Below are positions 8,772 to 33,978 of a stretch of DNA of 33,978 bases, piece after piece; position 1 is the first letter of the stretch, and each line of letters opens with the position of its first letter. The notes under the pieces are model-generated. The model had not been told where the DNA came from. It made no database searches and saw only the letters and a program-made list of their open reading frames with translations. The stretch lies in the IMG/VR virus record IMGVR_UViG_3300029868_000015; one strand, 5' to 3'. The DNA is from a virus. The position numbers and the translations under genes are program-made.

Positions 8772-9505
8772 TGGCAGATTTTACAGGTAATTCAATCGCA
8801 GATACTTACAAACGAGTGTTGCAGATCGGCGTGGATAATACCGGCGTTTCTGCAACACTACAGGACGTAGAAGACGGCGCGGGCGCAACAACGGCTTTGC
8901 AGCTGTCAACTAAAGCAGTCGTTTTCCAAAACGGCGGCACAGCGGAAGAATATGCTAGATTTAATGACAACGGCAAGTTATTGATGAACAATCCGGTAGC
9001 GTTAACCACTGGGCAGGGTTTCTCGTCTTCCCTTCAGTTAAACGGCTTGAATGGTAGCGATGCTAGCTTGTCAATTGCGCGATCTTCTGACAATACAGGC
9101 GGCACATTCTTATCTGGAAATAAGTCTAGGGGTACATTAGCTGCTCCGACTATTGTAGTGGACGGCGATAATATATTCAACATCACCGCAGCAGTACACA
9201 ACGGTACAGATTTTGACAATCCAGCGGTCCAAATGCGCTTTGTTGTTGAAGGCACTGTAACGCCCGGCGCGTCTTCGCAACCAGGAATGTTAGAAATAAC
9301 CAATGGTAGCGTTACGTCAGCTAGGTTTCATGGTGACAGTTACTTCGAAGTGCTTTTAGGAATTGTTAACGCCGTGTTTACAAACGGCTCAAGGCCTTCG
9401 GCTTCTTCTGTACGTGCAGGCACTGAGATTTGGAACAGCGACGACAAGTTTTCTAATACTTCAGACGGTTCTGACTGGTATGATCCTGCGGGGAACATCA
9501 CCTAA
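8771..9505 (+). CDS. Tail needle / fibre-like protein (candidate)
   Basis: 244 aa with a TAATG overlap. G/S/T/N-rich and beta-type. The call is positional. Confidence 0.35.
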   Translation: MADFTGNSIADTYKRVLQIGVDNTGVSATLQDVEDGAGATTALQLSTKAVVFQNGGTAEEYARFNDNGKLLMNNPVALTTGQGFSSSLQLNGLNGSDASLSIARSSDNTGGTFLSGNKSRGTLAAPTIVVDGDNIFNITAAVHNGTDFDNPAVQMRFVVEGTVTPGASSQPGMLEITNGSVTSARFHGDSYFEVLLGIVNAVFTNGSRPSASSVRAGTEIWNSDDKFSNTSDGSDWYDPAGNIT

Positions 9506-9918
9506 TGCCTGATATTGCCATAGGATATGACGAGCAAGTTCGGGATTGGGTTTCTAATGAGCTTGGCCTTGAAAAGATAGGCGGCGATATGTTTGCGGCT
9601 ATTGGCATTGCTGAAGACGGTGAGCTAATAGGCGGCGCTGTGTTTCATGATTACCGAGAACACATGATTGAAATGAGCTTTGCGTCAACGTCTCCTACGT
9701 GGTGTTCTAAGAAGATACTAAAGGCTATATTTGATTATCCTTTTAATCAGCTTGGCGTTACTCGGATAAACGCAGTTTGCGCTAAAGGTAATAAGAAGAT
9801 GCGGCTAACAGTTAAACGAATTGGGTTCAAACAAGAAGGCTGCGCCCGCAAAGGGTATGACGGAAAGCAAGACGCTGTATTGTACGGCATGCTAAATAAA
9901 GATTGTAACTGGAATTAG
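9505..9918 (+). CDS. GNAT-fold N-acetyltransferase-like protein (RimJ/RimL-like pattern)
   Basis: 137 aa. The stretch ...LKAIFDYPFNQLGVTRINAVCAKGNKKMRLTVKRIGFKQEGCARKGY...DAVLYGML matches the recalled Acetyltransf_3 core pattern (yaF..lgl.Ri.a.v...N..s.rl.ek.GF..EG..R). Confidence 0.55.
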   Translation: MPDIAIGYDEQVRDWVSNELGLEKIGGDMFAAIGIAEDGELIGGAVFHDYREHMIEMSFASTSPTWCSKKILKAIFDYPFNQLGVTRINAVCAKGNKKMRLTVKRIGFKQEGCARKGYDGKQDAVLYGMLNKDCNWN

Positions 9919-9921
9919 AAA

Positions 9922-11169
9922 ATGGGTAAAAGCTCACCAACACCACCACAAGCGCCGAATCCTATCGCCATTGCAGGCGCGCAGGGTGAAGCTAATATCG
10001 AGTCGGCAATTGCTAGCGCCATACTCAACCAACAGAATGTTGTTGGCCCTGAAGGGACTGTAAGCTTCGCACAGACGGGCGGCCAGAATGTTGGCGGTCA
10101 ATTTGTCCCTTCCTTCACGCGAACCACGCAGCTAACACCTGAAGCACAAGCTCAGTTTGAAGCACAGCAGCAACTTGGCGGCGCTCTTACTGGACTAGCA
10201 CAAGGACAAGTCGGCAGGATTGAAGGCGCATTAGGACAAGGCATTGACACTTCAGGATTGCCGGGCCTCGCTGGTGGCGCTCAAGGTGGCGCTATAACGG
10301 GCGGCATTGATACGTCCGGCTTACAACAAGTTCGTCAAGATTTCGGGCAGCAAGGCCAAGAGCTTGAGCAGGCCACCTTCCAGCGGGGGCTTAACTTACT
10401 ACGTCCGGAACTTGCACGACAGCGTGGCGATGTTGAACGGCTTGTCAGTGAGCGGGGGCTTCCTATAGGCTCTGAAGCCGCACAGAACAGATTATTCTCG
10501 CCGTTTGAAGAACGCAGAAACCAAGCGTTAGAAAACCTTGCTTTAAGCTCTGTAGGCGCAGGCCGTCAAGAACAAGCTAGATTGTTCCAGCAGGGTTCCC
10601 AGCAAAGAGGGCAGCAGTTCGGCGAACAAAGCGCAGGCGCACAGTTTGCAAATCAGGCTCAAAACTTAGGGTTTAATCAGGCTCTAGCAAGTGGACAGGC
10701 AGCAAATGCAGCAAGGGCGCAAGGCTTCCAAGAGCAAGCTTTCCAGCGTTCAATACCAATTAACGACATTGCCGCATTGCTCGGTACGGCTCCAGGTGTG
10801 CAGGCTCCGCAGTTCCAGGCAACGCCAGCCTTCGGTGTACAAGCTCCTGACGTTATCGGGGCTAGTCTAGGAGCTGCTAATATTGCACAGCAGCAGTTTG
10901 CACAACAGCAGCAACAAAGCAGCGGCTTACTTGGTGGTCTATTTAACCTTGGTGGATCTTTAGGATCGGCGGCCATTCTCTCAGATCGCAGGCTAAAAGC
11001 TAACGTTCGCAAGATCGGTAAAACATCTAAGGGCTTCAATCTCTACAGCTACATTAAAAACGGCATTGAAGAGATCGGCGTGATGGCGCAGGAAGTAATG
11101 CAAACCCTACCTGAAGCGGTTGTAATTAAAGACGGCTATTATGCTGTAATTTACAATGAGGTGACATAA
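9922..11169 (+). CDS. Q/G/A-rich virion protein with a C-terminal Peptidase_S74-like (intramolecular chaperone, self-cleaving) domain
   Basis: The C-terminal 62 aa, SDRRLKANVRKIGKTSKGFNLYSYIKNGIEEIGVMAQEVMQTLPEAVVIKDGYYAVIYNEV, fit the S74 pattern (SDxRLK...GxxAQEv..v.PeaV). The N-terminal 350 aa are low-complexity, with GIDTSGL repeated twice. Confidence 0.7.
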   Translation: MGKSSPTPPQAPNPIAIAGAQGEANIESAIASAILNQQNVVGPEGTVSFAQTGGQNVGGQFVPSFTRTTQLTPEAQAQFEAQQQLGGALTGLAQGQVGRIEGALGQGIDTSGLPGLAGGAQGGAITGGIDTSGLQQVRQDFGQQGQELEQATFQRGLNLLRPELARQRGDVERLVSERGLPIGSEAAQNRLFSPFEERRNQALENLALSSVGAGRQEQARLFQQGSQQRGQQFGEQSAGAQFANQAQNLGFNQALASGQAANAARAQGFQEQAFQRSIPINDIAALLGTAPGVQAPQFQATPAFGVQAPDVIGASLGAANIAQQQFAQQQQQSSGLLGGLFNLGGSLGSAAILSDRRLKANVRKIGKTSKGFNLYSYIKNGIEEIGVMAQEVMQTLPEAVVIKDGYYAVIYNEVT

Positions 11170-19891: not shown

Positions 19892-20082
19892 ATCATTACC
19901 TCAATCTTTACAGGCACAAATTTCAGACGCTTAAATAGTTCGTATTCACCACATATTGTATCGTGAAAATTAAGCTCGGCTTCTTCCTCATTCGATCCAA
20001 TGGCGTTGATGTAATAAACATCTTCAACAGGATCATAGGGGATTACACCCTTGAATTTCTTGTCAACTGATGACTGTTTCAT
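19888..20082 (-). CDS. Hypothetical protein (64 aa)
   Basis: ATGA overlap with the upstream gene. N-terminus MKQSSVD. Confidence 0.55.
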   Translation of the reverse strand: MKQSSVDKKFKGVIPYDPVEDVYYINAIGSNEEEAELNFHDTICGEYELFKRLKFVPVKIEVMI

Positions 20083-23512: not shown

Positions 23513-23525
23513 ATATTCATAGATT

Positions 23526-23593
23526 GCCCTCAAACATCTGACCCGAGGGCATCAACAGGGGTGAGGTTGTTGTTTTCCCCAGCGCCTCACCCC
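23526..23593 (+). other. Two consecutive stem-loops in the gap after 23512
   Basis: GCCCTC (23526-31) pairs with GAGGGC (23545-50). GGGGTGAGG (23558-66) pairs with CCTCACCCC (23585-93). There is no T run, so this is not a canonical intrinsic terminator. Confidence 0.5.
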
Positions 23594-23611: not shown

Positions 23612-23740
23612 ATGAGTGAGAACCCAGGATTTCAAGAGTTCAAAACGGTGAAAGACCTAGAGAAGTACGAACCCGGCGCGGCAAAGAAGATGCAGGAGCT
23701 GCGGGCAAAGTGGAAGCGTGAGGAGAAAGACGGTGAGTGA
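23612..23740 (+). CDS. Small hypothetical protein (42 aa)
   Basis: Hand-translated as MSENPGFQEFKTVKDLEKYEPGAAKKMQELRAKWKREEKDGE. The SD-like aaaaggtg lies upstream. Confidence 0.4.
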   Translation: MSENPGFQEFKTVKDLEKYEPGAAKKMQELRAKWKREEKDGE

Positions 23741-23843
23741 TTTACTGGTTATTTCCGCGTTAGGTGTTGGCTTTATCTTGGGGTGCGGATTTGCAATGTT
23801 GTTAATCGTTTTAGCTCGGAAATTGAAAAAGGATGAGACATGA
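23733..23843 (+). CDS. Small single-TM peptide (36 aa)
   Basis: GTG lies 7 nt after GAGGAG. Reads (M)SDLLVISALGVGFILGCGFAMLLIVLARKLKKDET. An ATGA overlap joins it to the next gene. Confidence 0.4.
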   Translation: MSDLLVISALGVGFILGCGFAMLLIVLARKLKKDET

Positions 23844-24106
23844 CCAACTACGTAATAGAAAAATCACCAACGAAAAGCATATCCTTAACACCAACCATTA
23901 AAATAGAAGCGTGCAAAGATAGTGTTTTAATCACCATGACTGATTGCAACAAGGCATTAAAGTTTGGTGGCATTGTCATAGATAGCAATGCGGATGGCGT
24001 CCATAACTTTATTGATGATGCATCCGAATGGCTGAAAGATGAGCTAGTAAGGGCGATAGATTTAGTAATTAAAGGTTCATCAAAAATTAACTTGCACGAA
24101 GACTAA
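23840..24106 (+). CDS. Hypothetical protein (88 aa)
   Basis: ORF in the track with no motif recognised. Confidence 0.55.
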   Translation: MTNYVIEKSPTKSISLTPTIKIEACKDSVLITMTDCNKALKFGGIVIDSNADGVHNFIDDASEWLKDELVRAIDLVIKGSSKINLHED

Positions 24107-24120
24107 CTAAATAATACTAT
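24092..24120 (+). promoter_or_regulatory. Candidate promoter at the left edge of the long noncoding region
   Basis: TTGCAC (24092-97), a 17-nt spacer, then TACTAT (24115-20). Confidence 0.25.
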
Positions 24121-24579
24121 ATGCATGCAACACGTTTTGACCTCGTATGTGGTCAATATGTAACGGGGAGCTAGAGATAGCTCTTGAACGTTAGGCCCCA
24201 GTCCTTTCTGCTCCCCATTTCTACCCACTGGAACCGCTTACTGGGCGCGGTGTCTATTTCAGACAAAACACTTCCCAAGGACTAAACCCCAAGATTTGGC
24301 TGACCGCAGCATTTCTTGTGTATGAGTTGACTACTGTGGTGTCTAGCGTCAGTCAACAGGCCAGAGCGAAAGAAGGATGGTCTTGCTAGCATAGGGAGAA
24401 TGGCCCCTAAGAAAGAACCTTCGAGGCGTGAGTGTCGTTAATCACGCTGACCGTAAGACCACTACAAAGCTCTAAAGGTTTTTAGATGGCCCGGTAAGCT
24501 CTACCCCTTGCTCTAATAAGCTTGGTTGGTAGAGCTATGACCAACGACATACAAGATAAAGGTTTTTAGGAACTTACAG
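24107..24579 (+). ncRNA. 473-nt noncoding, stem-rich region upstream of the HNH gene (candidate structured RNA or cis-acting DNA site, class unknown)
   Basis: No plausible ORF on either strand. At least 8 stems of 5-9 bp were read by eye (listed in the findings), one with a GAGA tetraloop. The 3' part contains internal repeats of about 85 nt. Confidence 0.4.
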
Positions 24580-25071
24580 ATGTATATATGGAACAGTAGG
24601 AAACTAGGTAAACAACACATTTTAAGCCCTGAAGGAAAATCATGGTGCAATGTAGAAAATAGTGGTGTGGATCTAAATGTGAGTTCAATGAGCGCAAACG
24701 GATCAAGAAAAATATGCAGCCTTTGTGCGCGTAAAGCTAGTGCGCCTCCTAAAAAAAAGAAGAAGCACAAGGCAAAAAAGGGTTCGCCTAAATACCGTGA
24801 TAACTTTTACAGAAGCATGTCCTGGAAGAAATTACGTTACAAAGCTTTGAAGTTTAATAACGGTAAATGTGAATTGTGCGGAGCTTCTAAACACTACGGC
24901 GCAGTCCTTAATGTAGACCATATAAAACCTAGAAAGCACAGACCCGACCTCGAATTAAAACTAAGCAACCTGCAAGTTCTTTGTGCAAGCTGCAACATGG
25001 GAAAGTGCAACGACGACGATACAGACTGGCGAGAACCTTCACTGAAGAAATTAATGGGCGAAGAGATGTAG
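24580..25071 (+). CDS. HNH endonuclease (free-standing)
   Basis: CELCGASKHYGAVLNVDHIKPRKHRPDLELKLSNLQVLCASCNMGK is a classical HNH motif. The start is uncertain, with an in-frame ATG at 24688 as an alternative. The N-terminal part is AT-rich with a K-run. Confidence 0.8.
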   Translation: MYIWNSRKLGKQHILSPEGKSWCNVENSGVDLNVSSMSANGSRKICSLCARKASAPPKKKKKHKAKKGSPKYRDNFYRSMSWKKLRYKALKFNNGKCELCGASKHYGAVLNVDHIKPRKHRPDLELKLSNLQVLCASCNMGKCNDDDTDWREPSLKKLMGEEM

Positions 25072-25102
25072 AGCTATGCCTGAAACACAAAGGAGAGAGA
25101 GA

Positions 25103-27043: not shown

Positions 27044-27400
27044 ATGATATTCGAAAGAAAGAGAGTTAGCAAAGATTATTTATACAAGGCAATAGAAACG
27101 CTAAACGGCACATTAAACCGCTATGCGTCGGTAATTGAGATAGCAAAATATTTAAACTGTGAGCCTGAAGCATTATCAAGGCCGCTGCATTTATTGGTGG
27201 CGAAAGGATTAATCAAACATGACATACAAGATGGGTTATTTTTCCGCGTGGTACCGAAGCACTTTGTTAAGGCGAAGGCTAAGAAAACTAGAAAAGTTGG
27301 TAGACCGCTTAGCAAGAAAGATGCAAACGGAAAGCTAATACACCTTAAAAGATACAACGAATATGGGCTTAAGATAATTCAAGGGCATGTTGTATTATAG
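27044..27400 (+). CDS. Winged-helix DNA-binding protein with a basic C-terminal region (late regulator candidate)
   Basis: YASVIEIAKYLNCEPEALSRPLHLLVAKGLI is wHTH-like. It is followed by KAKAKKTRKVGRPLSKK. This is the last gene before the tailspike cluster. Confidence 0.45.
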   Translation: MIFERKRVSKDYLYKAIETLNGTLNRYASVIEIAKYLNCEPEALSRPLHLLVAKGLIKHDIQDGLFFRVVPKHFVKAKAKKTRKVGRPLSKKDANGKLIHLKRYNEYGLKIIQGHVVL

Positions 27401-27484
27401 CAACGCAAGGAAAAAGTTATTGTTAACCGCGTTCATATAAAGGGGTTTAGATAGTTCTGTAATATTTGTTCTGAGTTAATATTT

Positions 27485-28726
27485 ATGAGGCGAGACGTTA
27501 TATTGGAAACAATCATGACGGTATACCAATTCGTAGGCGGTGAACTCGCTTCAAGTAGTGATACAGAGATACTAGTGCAGAAAGCCTCCGACCTAGCAGG
27601 TACACTAAGGAGCGACGTTGCCTATTTAATTGACGGCAGCATTGATATGGGTAGCCAATCCATAATAGTTCCGCAGGGTGGTTTAACCTTGATGGGGAAT
27701 GGTTTCAATATCGCACAGCTAACAACCAGCGTAACCAACGCAACTCTATTTGTAGACGATGGTGTTTTTGCTGGAGATTTATTCCTTCGCATGATGGATA
27801 TTGAAGTTACAGGAACCGGCGCGAAAGTGTTTGACCTAGATAATAACGAAAATTCTGACGCGATAGAATTTGACGCTGTTAACTTCAATAATTGCACAAG
27901 CCTTGGTTCAATGGATAGCTACAGGCAGCTACTTGCGAGAAACGTTGCATTCTTTGCCCCTGCTGACGGGCTGGAATTTATCGGCCCGTGGTCCGGTGGT
28001 TTAGCTATTGTTGACACAATTGTAATTCTATTGCCATCTGGCGCAACATTATTTAAAGCTGGTACGGGTTTCCTTGTGGGCGCAAGTGTTCGCTCAGATA
28101 TGAACGCGTTATCAGTAGATGCCAGTTCAACTATATTTGACTTTGCACCATCTAACATCACCCCTGATGGTGGGTTCTCATTAAGCAACTTCAGAACAGC
28201 CGCAGACGATGCATTGCCTAATTTCCCCTCTTCTAGTGTGAAGGCTAATTTCTCAAACTGTATTGGTATTAGTAACACATTCCCTGGCGGCAACTGGTCT
28301 ATATCCAGCGCTGCAACAACCACAATCGGAATGGTTGACACATTAGTTAAGCTTGCAGGAACCACCACATACAACGGGTTGCAGTGGTTTACAGGTTCGA
28401 ACAACAATGAGTTTGTTTTTGAGTCCACACAGGAAATTGACATTGTTGTTTCTGGTATATTGACCTTCACAGGCGGCGCTAACGATGAGATGGCCGTGCA
28501 GATACGAAGGTTTGACGATAGCGCAAGTTCATACGTAAATGTAGGTTCAGAGTTTAGCACTACTATCAGTTCAGGAGGCAGGGCCTCAAATTTACCGTTT
28601 AGAGGTGTAACAACCGTAGCAGAGAATGACCGTATTGAAGTATGGGTTAAGAACCTGACGGATGACACAGATATAACTGGATCAGTCGGCGGTAGTGTAG
28701 CCATTGGCGAGCGCTCATCTGTATAG
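27485..28726 (+). CDS. Tailspike / receptor-binding protein with a beta-helix-like repeat pattern
   Basis: About 400 aa, rich in G/N/S/T/V/I beta-strand periodicity (…IIVPQGGLTLMGNGFNIAQL…IEVTGTGAKVFDLDN…AVNFNNCTSLG…). The start is uncertain, with ATG 27515 as an alternative. Confidence 0.5.
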   Translation: MRRDVILETIMTVYQFVGGELASSSDTEILVQKASDLAGTLRSDVAYLIDGSIDMGSQSIIVPQGGLTLMGNGFNIAQLTTSVTNATLFVDDGVFAGDLFLRMMDIEVTGTGAKVFDLDNNENSDAIEFDAVNFNNCTSLGSMDSYRQLLARNVAFFAPADGLEFIGPWSGGLAIVDTIVILLPSGATLFKAGTGFLVGASVRSDMNALSVDASSTIFDFAPSNITPDGGFSLSNFRTAADDALPNFPSSSVKANFSNCIGISNTFPGGNWSISSAATTTIGMVDTLVKLAGTTTYNGLQWFTGSNNNEFVFESTQEIDIVVSGILTFTGGANDEMAVQIRRFDDSASSYVNVGSEFSTTISSGGRASNLPFRGVTTVAENDRIEVWVKNLTDDTDITGSVGGSVAIGERSSV

Positions 28727-29523: not shown

Positions 29524-29751
29524 GTGGGCGAGACAGTGATAAGCGACGGCAAGACCTTCCACTGCCTCTGCATGAGCGGCGCAGGGACAAGTGAGTGCAC
29601 AGAAATCACAGCATTAGGCGTAATAGGCGGCGGAGTTATAATTCGCACGAAGACAACTACAGCAAAAACAGTAGCCGAAGCACTCACTCACCTACCCGGC
29701 GCACACCTCACTGAAGACAACGGCATTATAGCTATTAGCGGTGAAGCGTAA
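29524..29751 (+). CDS. Hypothetical protein (75 aa)
   Basis: GTG start, with a TAATG overlap into terS. Confidence 0.4.
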   Translation: MGETVISDGKTFHCLCMSGAGTSECTEITALGVIGGGVIIRTKTTTAKTVAEALTHLPGAHLTEDNGIIAISGEA

Positions 29752-30167
29752 TGACAGGCAGACCCTCCGCATACACCAAAGAACTAGGTGATGAGATCCT
29801 AGTACGCATATCAGCAGGTGAGAAGATTACTCACATCGCACACGATAAACATATGCCAGCGTTATCAACAATATATTTGTGGAAGTCAGCACAAGAAGGC
29901 TTTTCGGAAGCTTTCGCACATGCGCGAGATGAAGGATGTGATGCAATATCCTTCCAAGCCCTTGAAATTGCTGATGATGTTGACATAGACCCTGCACACA
30001 AGCGGGTTATGGTTGACACTAGATTGAAGCTCTTGGGCATGTGGAGCAACCGCTACAGCGCCAAGCAATCCATAGACCACACCACAGCAGGCAAAGAGAT
30101 AAAGCCCGCACAGCAAGCTAGTACAGCAGAGCTTGAGGCCCTTATAGCCTCACACATGAAGAAGTAG
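29751..30167 (+). CDS. terS: Terminase small subunit
   Basis: GRPSAYTKELGDEILVRISAGEKITHIAHDKHMPALSTIYLWKSAQEGFSEAFAHARDEG...IADDVD...RLKLLGMWSNRYS matches the recalled TerS pattern GRP.kYt.e.a..Ic..la.G.sl..ic.....P...tv..W......F...y..Ar. Confidence 0.75.
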   Translation: MTGRPSAYTKELGDEILVRISAGEKITHIAHDKHMPALSTIYLWKSAQEGFSEAFAHARDEGCDAISFQALEIADDVDIDPAHKRVMVDTRLKLLGMWSNRYSAKQSIDHTTAGKEIKPAQQASTAELEALIASHMKK

Positions 30168-30565: not shown

Positions 30566-30982
30566 ATGAGAAGCACATCAAAGAACGACATTACATTCTC
30601 TGTGAACAAGGACGGCGATAATAACCGCTTTTGGGCTGGCAATTACAAGGTTGTCTGCAAAAAAGGTGAGGATTTCCAATGGGGTCCGGCTGATTTCACC
30701 TTTCAACTGGTAGACATGACATTCGAGGCAGACCCTAGCATGGACGGTACGCATGTGTTTATTATCAACTGGGCTGTAGCATCTAAAGACATAATGAAAC
30801 CTATAGAGATAGCCGGCCCAGAGGTGCCTGATGCAGGCCGTGACTTCATGATAGGTGAGGACTTCACGCTAGACGATCTAAACAAGCAGCTAGCACCACT
30901 CCTTACCTTTGACCGTGCAGACGCTAACTTAATGCTAGAGATGGTTAAACATCTTGGCGGTCCAGATATTACAATAGGCTAA
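30566..30982 (+). CDS. Hypothetical protein (138 aa)
   Basis: ORF in the track with the SD-like aagggcgg upstream. Confidence 0.55.
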   Translation: MRSTSKNDITFSVNKDGDNNRFWAGNYKVVCKKGEDFQWGPADFTFQLVDMTFEADPSMDGTHVFIINWAVASKDIMKPIEIAGPEVPDAGRDFMIGEDFTLDDLNKQLAPLLTFDRADANLMLEMVKHLGGPDITIG

Positions 30983-31041
30983 GGGCGACGGCATAGCGTC
31001 CTCGTATGCACCTCCGCAGTGTTAGCCGAAGCGGGAAGATT

Positions 31042-31066
31042 AAGCCTCTCACGGGGCTTTTTCTTT
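31042..31066 (+). terminator. Intrinsic terminator candidate
   Basis: The stem AAGCCTC / GGGGCTT (31042-48 and 31053-59, 7 bp including one G-U pair) has the loop TCAC and runs into TTTTTCTTT. Confidence 0.6.
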
Positions 31067-31070
31067 GTCT

Positions 31071-31490
31071 GCCGTGCAAGTATCTTATAGGATATTAAAG
31101 ATATAACCCGCTGTAAGACCGGAAAGCATCAGAAATCTTTTAGATTGCCCTTGTATTCCTGTTTTGAAGGCGTATATTAGGATGGTAACGAGCGGCGTTG
31201 AAAGTAGAAACGCAGTAGGTTTGTGAGAGGGTAAGCATCCTTTGGGCGATGCAGGGTTGCCGATGAATGGATCGAAGCCATACTGATGACCACAATACGG
31301 AGGCAGCAAGCCCTAGTAACGCGGGGCCTCGTTACAAGTTCTGAGTATGTATTGAGTAAGGTGTGTGCAGATGATCAGATACCAGAGGAAGTAGGCAAAA
31401 TAGCGATAGCATTAGCCTGACCGGAAGCCAGAGACTGTTCATTAATGCCGGGCCGCACACCGCTCACCACATCAAACACAGAGGCGAGAC
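31071..31490 (+). other. 420-nt noncoding, stem-rich region between terS and terL (candidate structured RNA, promoter/leader or packaging-related site)
   Basis: No credible ORF on either strand. Five or more stems were read by eye. Promoter candidate: TTGTAT (31151-56), 16-nt spacer, TATATT (31173-78). Confidence 0.4.
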
Positions 31491-31814
31491 ATGAGTGACT
31501 TTGAGACAGATGATTTTGAAATGTATTGGGACCCTGATGGGCTTGGTGTAAGCGTACGTGATTATGAGGGGTCGGCGTTCGCTCTACTCACTAGAGATGA
31601 GTCTAGGTGGCTCCTAGGGTGGCTACAGGCCAACCAACATGAAGACAATCACGAATACAAGCTAGGCGACAAGGGCCTCACCACCAGAGGCATTGCATAC
31701 GAGATCGTAGCTACAGATCCTGTGCGTGTCCACATGGGAGGCAATGACATGCAGCTAGAGGGTATGAAAATAGAGCTGCTGCCACCTACGGGAAATGTAG
31801 CAGACGGGGATTAA
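31491..31814 (+). CDS. Strongly acidic hypothetical protein (107 aa)
   Basis: ATG immediately follows GAGGCGAGAC, the same leader as terL. Rich in D/E. Confidence 0.55.
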   Translation: MSDFETDDFEMYWDPDGLGVSVRDYEGSAFALLTRDESRWLLGWLQANQHEDNHEYKLGDKGLTTRGIAYEIVATDPVRVHMGGNDMQLEGMKIELLPPTGNVADGD

Positions 31815-33120: not shown

Positions 33121-33978
33121 ATGAACATAGAAGAAGCAGCTAAAGAGCTGTTGAGGCGCAGGCGGGCAGAGGCAGGCCTGATAGATTTCACACGGTATAC
33201 ATTCCCAAAGTACCGACCTGCCGACCACCATTTCCAAATAGCGGCAAAACTTGAAGCTGTAGAGCGTGGCGACATTAAACGCCTGATGATATTTATGCCA
33301 CCTCGTCACGGTAAGAGTGAGCTAGCATCAAAGCGCTTCCCTGCATGGTGCCTTGGCCGTGATCCAGATAAGAACTTCATATCAGCATCATACAACTCAG
33401 AGCTTGCTGGTGATTTTGGCCGTGAGGTTAGAAACATCATTCAAGAGGAAGAATATGCAAACCTGTTTCCGAATACCAGCATTGCAAAGGATAGCGGATC
33501 TGCACCACGCTGGCACACTAACGGGCTAGGTGGATATGTTGCGGCGGGTATTGGTACAGCGGTTACAGGCCGGGGCGCTCACATCTTCACCATTGATGAC
33601 CCGATTAAAGACAGAGAACAGGCAGAGAGCGAAACCCAACGGCGCAGAATTTACGACTGGTACAAGTCAACAGCCTACACACGCCTGGAATCAGAACTAA
33701 GCGGTGAAGTAACAGAGGAAGACCTGTTTTGGGACGTGTCTGCATCACTTAGGGAAGGGTTAATCAAGCCATTCGAGGGCGCAATCGTTCTAATTCAAAC
33801 ACGATGGCATGAAGACGATCTAGCAGGCAAGCTGATAACCGACATGGAGAACGGGGCGGATCAGTGGGAAATACTAGACCTTCCAGCAATACAGGACAAT
33901 CAAGCGCTATGGCCTTCAAAGTACCCACTTGATAAGCTCCAGAAGATTAAAGCCGCAATTGGTGCAAGGGAATGGTCG
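33121..33978 (+). CDS. terL: Terminase large subunit, N-terminal (ATPase) part. It is open to the window end and continues at 120..791.
   Basis: Hand-translated as MNIEEAAKELLRRRRAEAGLIDFTRYTFPKYRPADHHFQIAAKLEAVERGDIKRLMIFMPPRHGKSELAS.... Walker A-like PRHGKS, Walker B-like HIFTIDDP, and TRWHEDDL are present. There is no stop before the end of the window. Confidence 0.9.
   Translation, partial: MNIEEAAKELLRRRRAEAGLIDFTRYTFPKYRPADHHFQIAAKLEAVERGDIKRLMIFMPPRHGKSELASKRFPAWCLGRDPDKNFISASYNSELAGDFGREVRNIIQEEEYANLFPNTSIAKDSGSAPRWHTNGLGGYVAAGIGTAVTGRGAHIFTIDDPIKDREQAESETQRRRIYDWYKSTAYTRLESELSGEVTEEDLFWDVSASLREGLIKPFEGAIVLIQTRWHEDDLAGKLITDMENGADQWEILDLPAIQDNQALWPSKYPLDKLQKIKAAIGAREWS
33860..33978. 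repeat. Terminal direct repeat, right copy (identical to 1..119)
   Basis: Read directly. Confidence 0.95.

Follow-up and report, generated by a model that had tools for sequence, protein, structure and literature searches.

A covarying leader RNA that moves together with a small HNH gene of uncultured phages, with a probable role in setting the amount of nuclease

Do similar short strings in several long intergenic regions of one phage genome represent a single regulatory site, or elements of different origin? This question is raised by IMG/VR record IMGVR_UViG_3300029868_000015, a stretch of 33,978 nucleotides (nt) referred to here as the window, for which a sequence-only reading had described a repeated element of about 40 nt in four copies: A1 (24446-24492), A2 (24534-24570), B (31110-31150) and a core-only copy, C (27438-27454). 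All four strings are present at these positions. A1 and A2 lie in gap A, the long gap preceding a gene (24580..25071, + strand) for an HNH endonuclease of 163 amino acids (aa), while B is located in a second long gap, gap B. Selfish nuclease genes are common in phage genomes and, to our knowledge, only a few T4 examples have had the control that keeps them harmless worked out in detail. The comparisons described below indicate that A1 and A2 are parts of a folded leader of ~290 bases, which travels with the small HNH gene in uncultured phages and probably controls the amount of nuclease.

Recurrence of the copies and occurrence of the leader

In the 2,434 nt of intergenic DNA of the window that were scored for repeats, the core of A1 and A2, together with TAAAGGGGTTTAG at 27438, represented the top recurring 12-14-mer and exceeded 40 of 40 dinucleotide shuffles; no recurring 16-20-mer was significant against such shuffles. 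The 13-mer TAAAGGTTTTTAG is identical in A1 and A2, which carry it 84 nt apart, and the two are retained as a pair in eight other loci. In contrast, the similarity between A1 and B was not significant: the best local alignment of gap A with gap B did not rise above shuffles (z below 1.7), a match to A1 as good as B was obtained in 19-23% of shuffled genomes, family profiles of A1 or A2 did not recover B even at E = 1000, and comparison of gap B with all leaders gave p = 0.29. Scanned against a shuffled background, A1, A2 and C thus stand out and the likeness of A1 to B does not, so that the element said to be common to the long intergenic regions is reduced to the A1/A2 pair, with C as a relative and B unrelated to A1. 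A single repeat family of A1, A2, B and C was likewise not supported, C being significant only against one lineage of leaders (L096, see below) and B being missed by the profiles. The background had been described as AT-rich; the G+C content of the window is 46.7%.

To locate the leader in other genomes, a profile representing the 3' half of gap A of the window was run by nhmmer against 265 loci, a sample biased towards HNH-bearing loci. The leader was found directly before the HNH gene in L096/L097, L093, L178, L179, L180/L181, L182, L263 and L265 (L numbers denote loci and relatives in this study), with E values of 1e-46 to 1e-91, and was detected nowhere else among the 265 loci, no copy lacking an adjacent HNH gene. 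Together with RNAalifold and pair counts, these matches define a conserved structured leader RNA of ~290 nt at 24303..24579 (+ strand), which contains both A1 and A2. The genes flanking the leader and HNH unit are unrelated from locus to locus (nine loci). In L088, one of the two closest relatives and an IMG/VR contig with ~82% nucleotide identity in structural genes, homology to the window is lost behind a TCCCAA box (~24285) and is regained at 25073, immediately past the HNH stop codon. Because the flanks differ and the homology to L088 breaks around the unit, the leader and the HNH gene appear to behave as one mobile cassette.

Neither L088 nor L090, a mosaic relative with a complete 36.7-kb genome in IMG/VR that shares Erf, NinB, the gene described as encoding a winged helix-turn-helix (wHTH) protein and gap B, carries the HNH gene, A1 or A2. 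The core pattern TAAAGGNNTTTAG, with at most one mismatch, is absent from the entire L090 genome, and the L088 contig contains a lone one-mismatch match (20021-20033) that is not at the corresponding sites. Among the known phage genomes of INPHARED, no nucleotide match to gap A or gap B was obtained; the gaps were conserved in none of the 80 loci of TerL-based relatives (≤66% amino-acid identity), and IMG/VR pattern scans with the A1 core and the invariant block of the leader returned no matches. Scans of metagenomes and GTDB genomes with the HNH alignment returned mostly generic HNH domains and no further leader. The coding potential of the gaps was limited to short open reading frames (ORFs).

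The 5' part of gap A (24127..24285, + strand) consists of backbone sequence common with L088, exhibits 84% identity to this HNH-less relative at 24130-24188, and has a CAGACAAAACACTTCCCAA box at its end. A sigma70-type promoter where the long gap begins, designated P_A (24092..24120, + strand; TTGCAC-17-TACTAT), was predicted from sequence, with TTGCAA-17-TATAAT at this position in L088 and TTGCAC-17-TATTAT in L090; it would transcribe the entire leader and the HNH gene. The CAGACAAAACACTTCCCAA box, at 24253-24278, marks the end of homology to L088, and ...CAAAA...TCCCAA boxes were also observed upstream of the leader in L093, L178 and L265, as well as in the diverged gap of L094. This box may constitute the left junction of the cassette.

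The HNH assignment of the 163-aa protein is based on PF01844, phrog_144 and the family alignment. The protein consists of an N-terminal Cys/His-rich domain, a Lys-rich linker and a C-terminal HNH domain, all of which are conserved in homologues with 46-65% identity, and its closest solved structure is the HNH endonuclease of phage GVE2 (5h0m). PF01844 was the only Pfam match, sequence and fold searches matched HNH domains only, and the predicted structure gave no clue to an RNA-binding fold. With the exception of P0131, every HNH homologue with enough upstream contig is preceded by 337-570 nt of ORF-free DNA. A 49%-identical homologue in another phage, L094/L095, follows an ORF-free gap of 508 nt (9493-10000), in which no similarity to the leader and no internal repeat was detectable; this gap represents either a very diverged leader or a different one.

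Fold of the leader and concerted change of A1 and A2

Consensus folding by RNAalifold, performed on 7 and repeated on 9 sequences, gave the same 11-12 helices with 59-61 pairs, 25-29 of which exhibited compensatory change. In the 7-sequence alignment, 94% of cells were able to pair, compared with 36-46% when the partners were slid by 1-3 columns; 25 pairs were changed on both sides (2-5 when slid), and the covariation score was 0.367 (0.054-0.091 when slid). None of 500 shuffles equalled the observed percentage paired, the counts of pairs or cells changed on both sides, or the covariation score, while the count of further pair types was not significant (76 of 500 shuffles as high). G-U pairs occur in most sequences, for example at columns 21-58, 145-168 and 189-199, and as these retained pairs would be C-A mismatches on the other strand, the + strand is indicated to be the one that folds. 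The invariant loops of the leader include GUGUC and GAGAAUGGCC. Searches against Rfam 15 gave no match at gathering score across the whole window, and only noise at E values up to 10 for 24050-24650 and 30950-31550.

In this fold, A1 forms an irregular hairpin (24449..24496, + strand), with compensatory changes in helices 7 and 9 and G-U pairs in most sequences. Helix 7 is composed of GACCG/CGGTA, helix 8 of GACC/GGC and helix 9 of TACAAAGCTC/AGGTTTTTA; the 5' strand, designated S, spans 24463-24472, and the 3'-strand core TAAAGGTTTTTAG spans 24473-24485. What had been described as the core of the repeat is thus the 3' strand of helix 9. For the hairpin TCTAAA/TTTAGA that had been proposed within A1, 79% of cells pair across the family and one pair is broken in five of seven sequences; the helix AAGCU(C)/(G)GGUUU is better supported. 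Between A1 and A2, a further hairpin comprising helices 10-11 (24498..24535, + strand; GCTCTAC...GTAGAGC) was identified by the consensus fold and pair counts. A2 (24536..24579, + strand) is represented in the consensus fold by helix 12 (TATG/CATA, 24536-24551) and by an unpaired tail (24552-24579), in which the sequence of the helix 9 3' strand recurs. This tail carries Shine-Dalgarno-like AAGG/AGGA bases and the second core, TAAAGGTTTTTAG at 24557-24569, which is separated from the HNH ATG by 10 nt. The AAGG(G) in the A2 core is situated 8-15 nt from the start codon in the window, L096, L180 and L263, four of the five lineages, a placement like that of a Shine-Dalgarno sequence.

The two cores change together between lineages. 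The window carries TAAAGGTTTTTAG in both A1 and A2, L096 carries TAAAGGGTTTTAG in both, L180 TAAGGGTTCGAG in both and L263 TAAGGGCTGCAT in both, and the L093 group carries TATGAGTTTCTAG in A1 and TAAGAGTTTCTAG in A2. Of 13 core positions, 0-1 distinguish A1 from A2 within a genome, compared with a mean of 5.4 across the five lineages, and the true A1-A2 assignment is the only one of 120 permutations to give so small a total difference. Furthermore, S changes along with the cores, CUAC, CUGC, CUCC and GCUAC pairing with UAG, UAG, GAG and GC, respectively.

Two other interpretations of the core were considered and rejected. Pairing of the cores with segment X (AGAAAGAACCTTC, 24401-24413) was good in three sequences, but it was dropped because only 75% of cells pair overall and because, in L182 and L265, an X of the window or L096 type accompanies a core of the L093 type. 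Readings of the core as a sigma28, Bacteroidetes-type or T4-late promoter were judged by eye to be unfit in spacing or key bases.

An upstream ORF of ten codons (24537-24569; MTNDIQDKGF*) was also observed in A2. Its ATG, which lies within helix 12, is invariant in the family; in the window, the ORF terminates within the A2 core, leaving 10 nt up to the HNH ATG. The frame and length of this ORF vary among lineages, L263 exhibiting an in-frame fusion with the HNH gene. Coupling of ribosomes to the HNH start is a possible role of this ORF.

A candidate translational gate and its alternatives

The reading that we favour, and consider probable if well short of certain, is that the leader is a translational gate tied to the cassette, in which S pairs with either A1 or A2, that C is a relic of A2 and that B is unrelated. 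S can pair with the A1 core or with A2 because A2 duplicates the sequence of the helix 9 3' strand. Pairing of S with the A1 core would create a local hairpin and leave the start region open, whereas pairing with A2 would occlude the start region, and such a gate would limit or time the synthesis of a potentially harmful nuclease, as occurs in T4 with simpler hairpins. The alternative S:A2 helix is possible in 90% of cells, compared with 29-71% for slid partners, and it prevails over other pairings of A2 in the ensembles computed for L093 and L178; in the consensus folds of both the 7 and the 9 sequences, A2 and the Shine-Dalgarno region are unpaired. The earlier proposal that the copies are cis-regulatory sites would then be correct for A1 and A2, which act in cis at the RNA level, in line with one of the options given in that proposal, but not in the form of one site common to three gene clusters.

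A number of observations weigh against such a gate. The leaders represent about five independent lineages, and all of them were found via the HNH protein, so that leaders without an HNH gene would escape notice. Folded as a single sequence, the window is not unusually stable (z = -1.47), and the case for the fold is consequently based on the comparison between sequences. The window's own ensemble leaves A2 mostly unpaired, S not being its main partner, and covariation of the S:A2 helix did not exceed that of shuffles, since A2 mirrors A1; independent covariation of this helix is thus lacking. Direct occlusion is, moreover, not universal, as the likely Shine-Dalgarno sequence of the L093 group is positioned ~25 nt downstream of the A2 core. 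Furthermore, a common protein partner or gene conversion would give the same concerted pattern, and some 11 conserved helices with invariant loops far exceed the needs of a simple gate.

RNA hairpins that sequester the ribosome-binding site (RBS) have been reported for the T-even homing-endonuclease genes I-TevI, I-TevII, I-TevIII, segB and Aeh1 mobE (PMC2988022). These hairpins are single, stable and a few tens of nucleotides in length, and pair with the RBS directly, a late promoter inside the hairpin serving as bypass (PMC2988022). As in these systems, the leader described here is a cis-acting RNA structure directly 5' of a selfish phage nuclease gene that extends as far as the Shine-Dalgarno and start region, it would presumably restrict or postpone the synthesis of the nuclease, and it adjoins a free-standing nuclease gene with which it moves (nine loci, absent in the closest relatives). 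Unlike the T-even hairpins, it comprises ~290 nt and ~11 covarying helices, its start region is unpaired in the consensus, and its hairpin carries a copy of the start region as a possible decoy; no internal promoter is evident, and no late-promoter consensus is known for this phage group. The A1/A2 leader would, on sequence comparison, be a new and larger form of the structured leaders known before phage homing-type nuclease genes. What characterizes this family is a much larger, covarying leader with an internal duplicate of the start region, which keeps pace in evolution with the real one. In uncultured P22-like phages, the long and seemingly empty gaps beside small HNH genes probably represent RNA elements of the nuclease cassette.

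Three-part switches composed of an anti-Shine-Dalgarno, an anti-anti-Shine-Dalgarno and a Shine-Dalgarno segment are found in riboswitch expression platforms and translational attenuators. The leader resembles these in that S has two mutually exclusive, identical partners, one of them over the translation start, and in that the three segments co-evolve. It differs in that no ligand, sensor domain or trigger was identified here, nor any match to an Rfam riboswitch or leader.

A different and, in our judgement, unlikely explanation is that A1 and A2 are two RNA sites for one protein, for example the HNH protein itself or a phage translational repressor, and that occupancy of the start region by this protein, rather than a choice between RNA pairings, exerts the regulation. 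The HNH protein would bind by means of its Cys/His N-terminal domain and Lys-rich linker, with a specificity that co-evolves with the cores. The joint change of both cores, the conservation of this domain and linker along with the leader, the invariant loops, which are suggestive of a bound partner, and the S:A2 helix without independent covariation all agree with this explanation. However, the A1 core is already constrained by its pairing with S in a helix with compensatory changes, and no RNA-binding fold was recognized, the structural matches being to the HNH domain only.

It is quite improbable that the leader does not regulate the HNH gene and is instead an RNA with a function of its own, for example a leader or antitermination element of the early/replication operon that serves the nuclease gene as insertion target, or a partner RNA of the nuclease, with the A2-type module as a portable translation-start module that is duplicated on insertion of the HNH ORF. 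The complexity of the fold, with ~11 helices and invariant loops, would suit such a function. Furthermore, the 11-mer GTAGAGCTATG flanks A2 and the HNH ORF of the window as a direct repeat (24529-24539 and 25068-25078; p = 0.013), a similar 10-mer repeat surrounds the HNH ORF in L178 (p = 0.033), the gene downstream of HNH in L263 has an A2-like module, the third of that locus, in front of it (CAAGATAAAGGTTGCAAAACAATG, 20 of 24 matches, p = 0.003), and C is located before a non-HNH gene. These observations point, on thin evidence, to insertion of the HNH ORF at translation-start modules, which would be duplicated in the process. Conversely, no leader without an HNH gene was present among the 265 loci, allowing for their sampling bias, HNH-less relatives lack the leader, and in six of nine lineages no flanking repeat was significant.

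The sequence-only reading had itself suggested a recurring DNA site before three clusters, either an operator for the wHTH protein or a common middle/late promoter element, which we now regard as very unlikely. In favour of such a site, all copies are intergenic and on the + strand, the recurring 12-14-mer exceeds shuffles as a triple, and B and C are each found just upstream of a predicted -35 hexamer. Yet B is not significantly similar to A1, A1 is part of a covarying RNA helix with strand-specific G-U pairs, and no further copy of the core of L093 was found in the 20 kb around its HNH gene. Conservation of the element upstream of the same clusters was not observed either, the core being absent from L090 genome-wide and the corresponding sites in L088 having diverged. 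A wHTH operator in particular is disfavoured because L090 retains the wHTH gene (80% nucleotide identity) without the core motif.

We would assign only a slight chance to the ~290-nt RNA serving the 163-aa HNH protein as a functional partner or as a sensor, with the A1/A2 pair as its output stage. It would act in one form as part of a ribonucleoprotein, in which the RNA helps the nuclease to find or avoid a DNA target, and in another as a riboswitch-like sensor, the conserved core of which reads a cellular signal. As in the OMEGA systems (IscB/IsrB/IshB with omega RNA), a structured RNA of several hundred nucleotides is situated upstream of an HNH nuclease on the same strand in a mobile unit; unlike in OMEGA, the protein lacks RuvC and PLMP domains, with matches to HNH only, and neither an Rfam match to HEARO/omega RNA nor any sign of IS200/IS605 was found in this phage setting. 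If true, this reading would describe a very small RNA-associated HNH nuclease in phages. Finally, the notion that all similarity arose by chance in intergenic DNA, although valid for B and for a TAGATTGCCC match at 23520, can practically be discarded, as chance is excluded for A1, A2 and C by the shuffles, the covariation, the concerted change and the alignment score of C.

Copies B and C and the surrounding genome

C (27436..27468, + strand) was aligned to the A2 module and first HNH codons of the L096 lineage, with 28 of 33 columns matching and CTG in the position of the ATG. The alignment score of 37 compares with a null of 19 +/- 2 (maximum 26; 0 of 300 shuffles as high). This alignment identifies C as the 33-nt remnant of an A2-type module that derives from a different cassette lineage, rather than as a working copy.

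B (31110..31150, + strand), which is not a member of the A family, occupies -36 to -76 relative to a predicted sigma70-type promoter, P_B (31151..31178, + strand; TTGTAT-16-TATATT). The hexamers and spacing of P_B are kept in three phages, with TTGATT-16-TATATT in L088 and TTGCAA-16-TATATT in L090, and its -10 hexamer and downstream sequence exhibit 91-97% identity in these relatives. Upstream of B, an intrinsic terminator (31042-31066) is kept with compensating changes in L088. The 5' half of B (GCTNTAAGACCGGAAAGNATCAGAAAT) is identical to L088 at 25 of 27 positions, is not A/T-rich and may bind a protein, while the 3' half (AGAAATCTTTTAGAT), at about -38 to -57, is A/T-rich and loosely kept in L088. 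A module homologous to B, AAGAAATCTCATTTAGTCC|TTGCAT|TCCTGTT, accompanies another promoter of L090. B directly abuts the predicted -35, in the manner of a sigma70 promoter with an UP element or class I activator site, although in comparison with UP-element promoters the -35 of the window (TTGTAT) matches only three of six consensus positions. B is best interpreted as a putative UP element or activator region of P_B.

The likeness of B to A1, TTTTAGATkGCCC, is specific to this phage, as the same A1 positions differ in the other HNH lineages, and we take it to be due to chance. Exact occurrences of TAGATKGCCC number three (23520, 24483 and 31141), and by our own estimate an 11-mer common to two places in 2.4 kb is expected ~0.7 times. 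The occurrence that adds to those at the 3' end of B and in A1, TAGATTGCCC (23520..23529, + strand), follows the NinB-like gene; it was judged a chance match rather than a further copy, its gap (gap D) giving p = 0.46 against the leaders and the match not being kept in L090. Look-alike short motifs in other gaps need not be related.

Downstream of P_B, which would drive it, a second conserved non-coding leader of ~300 nt (31185-31490), distinct from that of the HNH gene, was observed, with 91-97% identity in L088/L090 compared with 75% for terS. It contains a hypervariable insert (~31217-31310) enclosed by a predicted long-range helix of GGTAACGAG with CTCGTTAC, and in L090 it directly follows the wHTH gene rather than terS. 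No Rfam match was obtained for this leader, and its three compensatory pairs represent too few substitutions to prove a fold.

The window, the sequence of which is also that of JGI contig Ga0071102_1000499, is a circularly permuted phage contig, bases 1-119 being identical to 33860-33978, with a P22/Sf6-like gene content that includes Erf and a NinB-like protein. An Sf6-type small terminase gene is present at 29751-30167, the TerL gene spans the contig ends, and the minus strand carries genes for an endolysin and a Holliday-junction resolvase; no tRNA or tmRNA was found in the window. The gene previously described as a tailspike (27485-28726, 413 aa) has a PHROG of unknown function as its sole match, and the product of the presumed wHTH gene (27044-27400) gave helix-turn-helix matches below threshold only.

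Some gene boundaries in the window may also be refined. The start of the 413-aa gene at 27485 was probably called too early, ATG 27515 being likelier because L088 lacks an ATG at the 27485 position and because a -10-like hexamer, TAATAT, is conserved at 27477-27482. Similarly, the start of the gene following HNH was probably called early (25076), ATG 25103 behind AAGGAGAGAG being likelier, as in L088. In the 327-nt gap that follows the NinB-like gene, the truly non-coding part is reduced to ~100 nt by two plausible small genes: one at 23718-23843 for a hydrophobic product of 41 aa, and one at 23612-23740 for 42 aa, with AAAAGG before its ATG and 96% nucleotide identity to L090.

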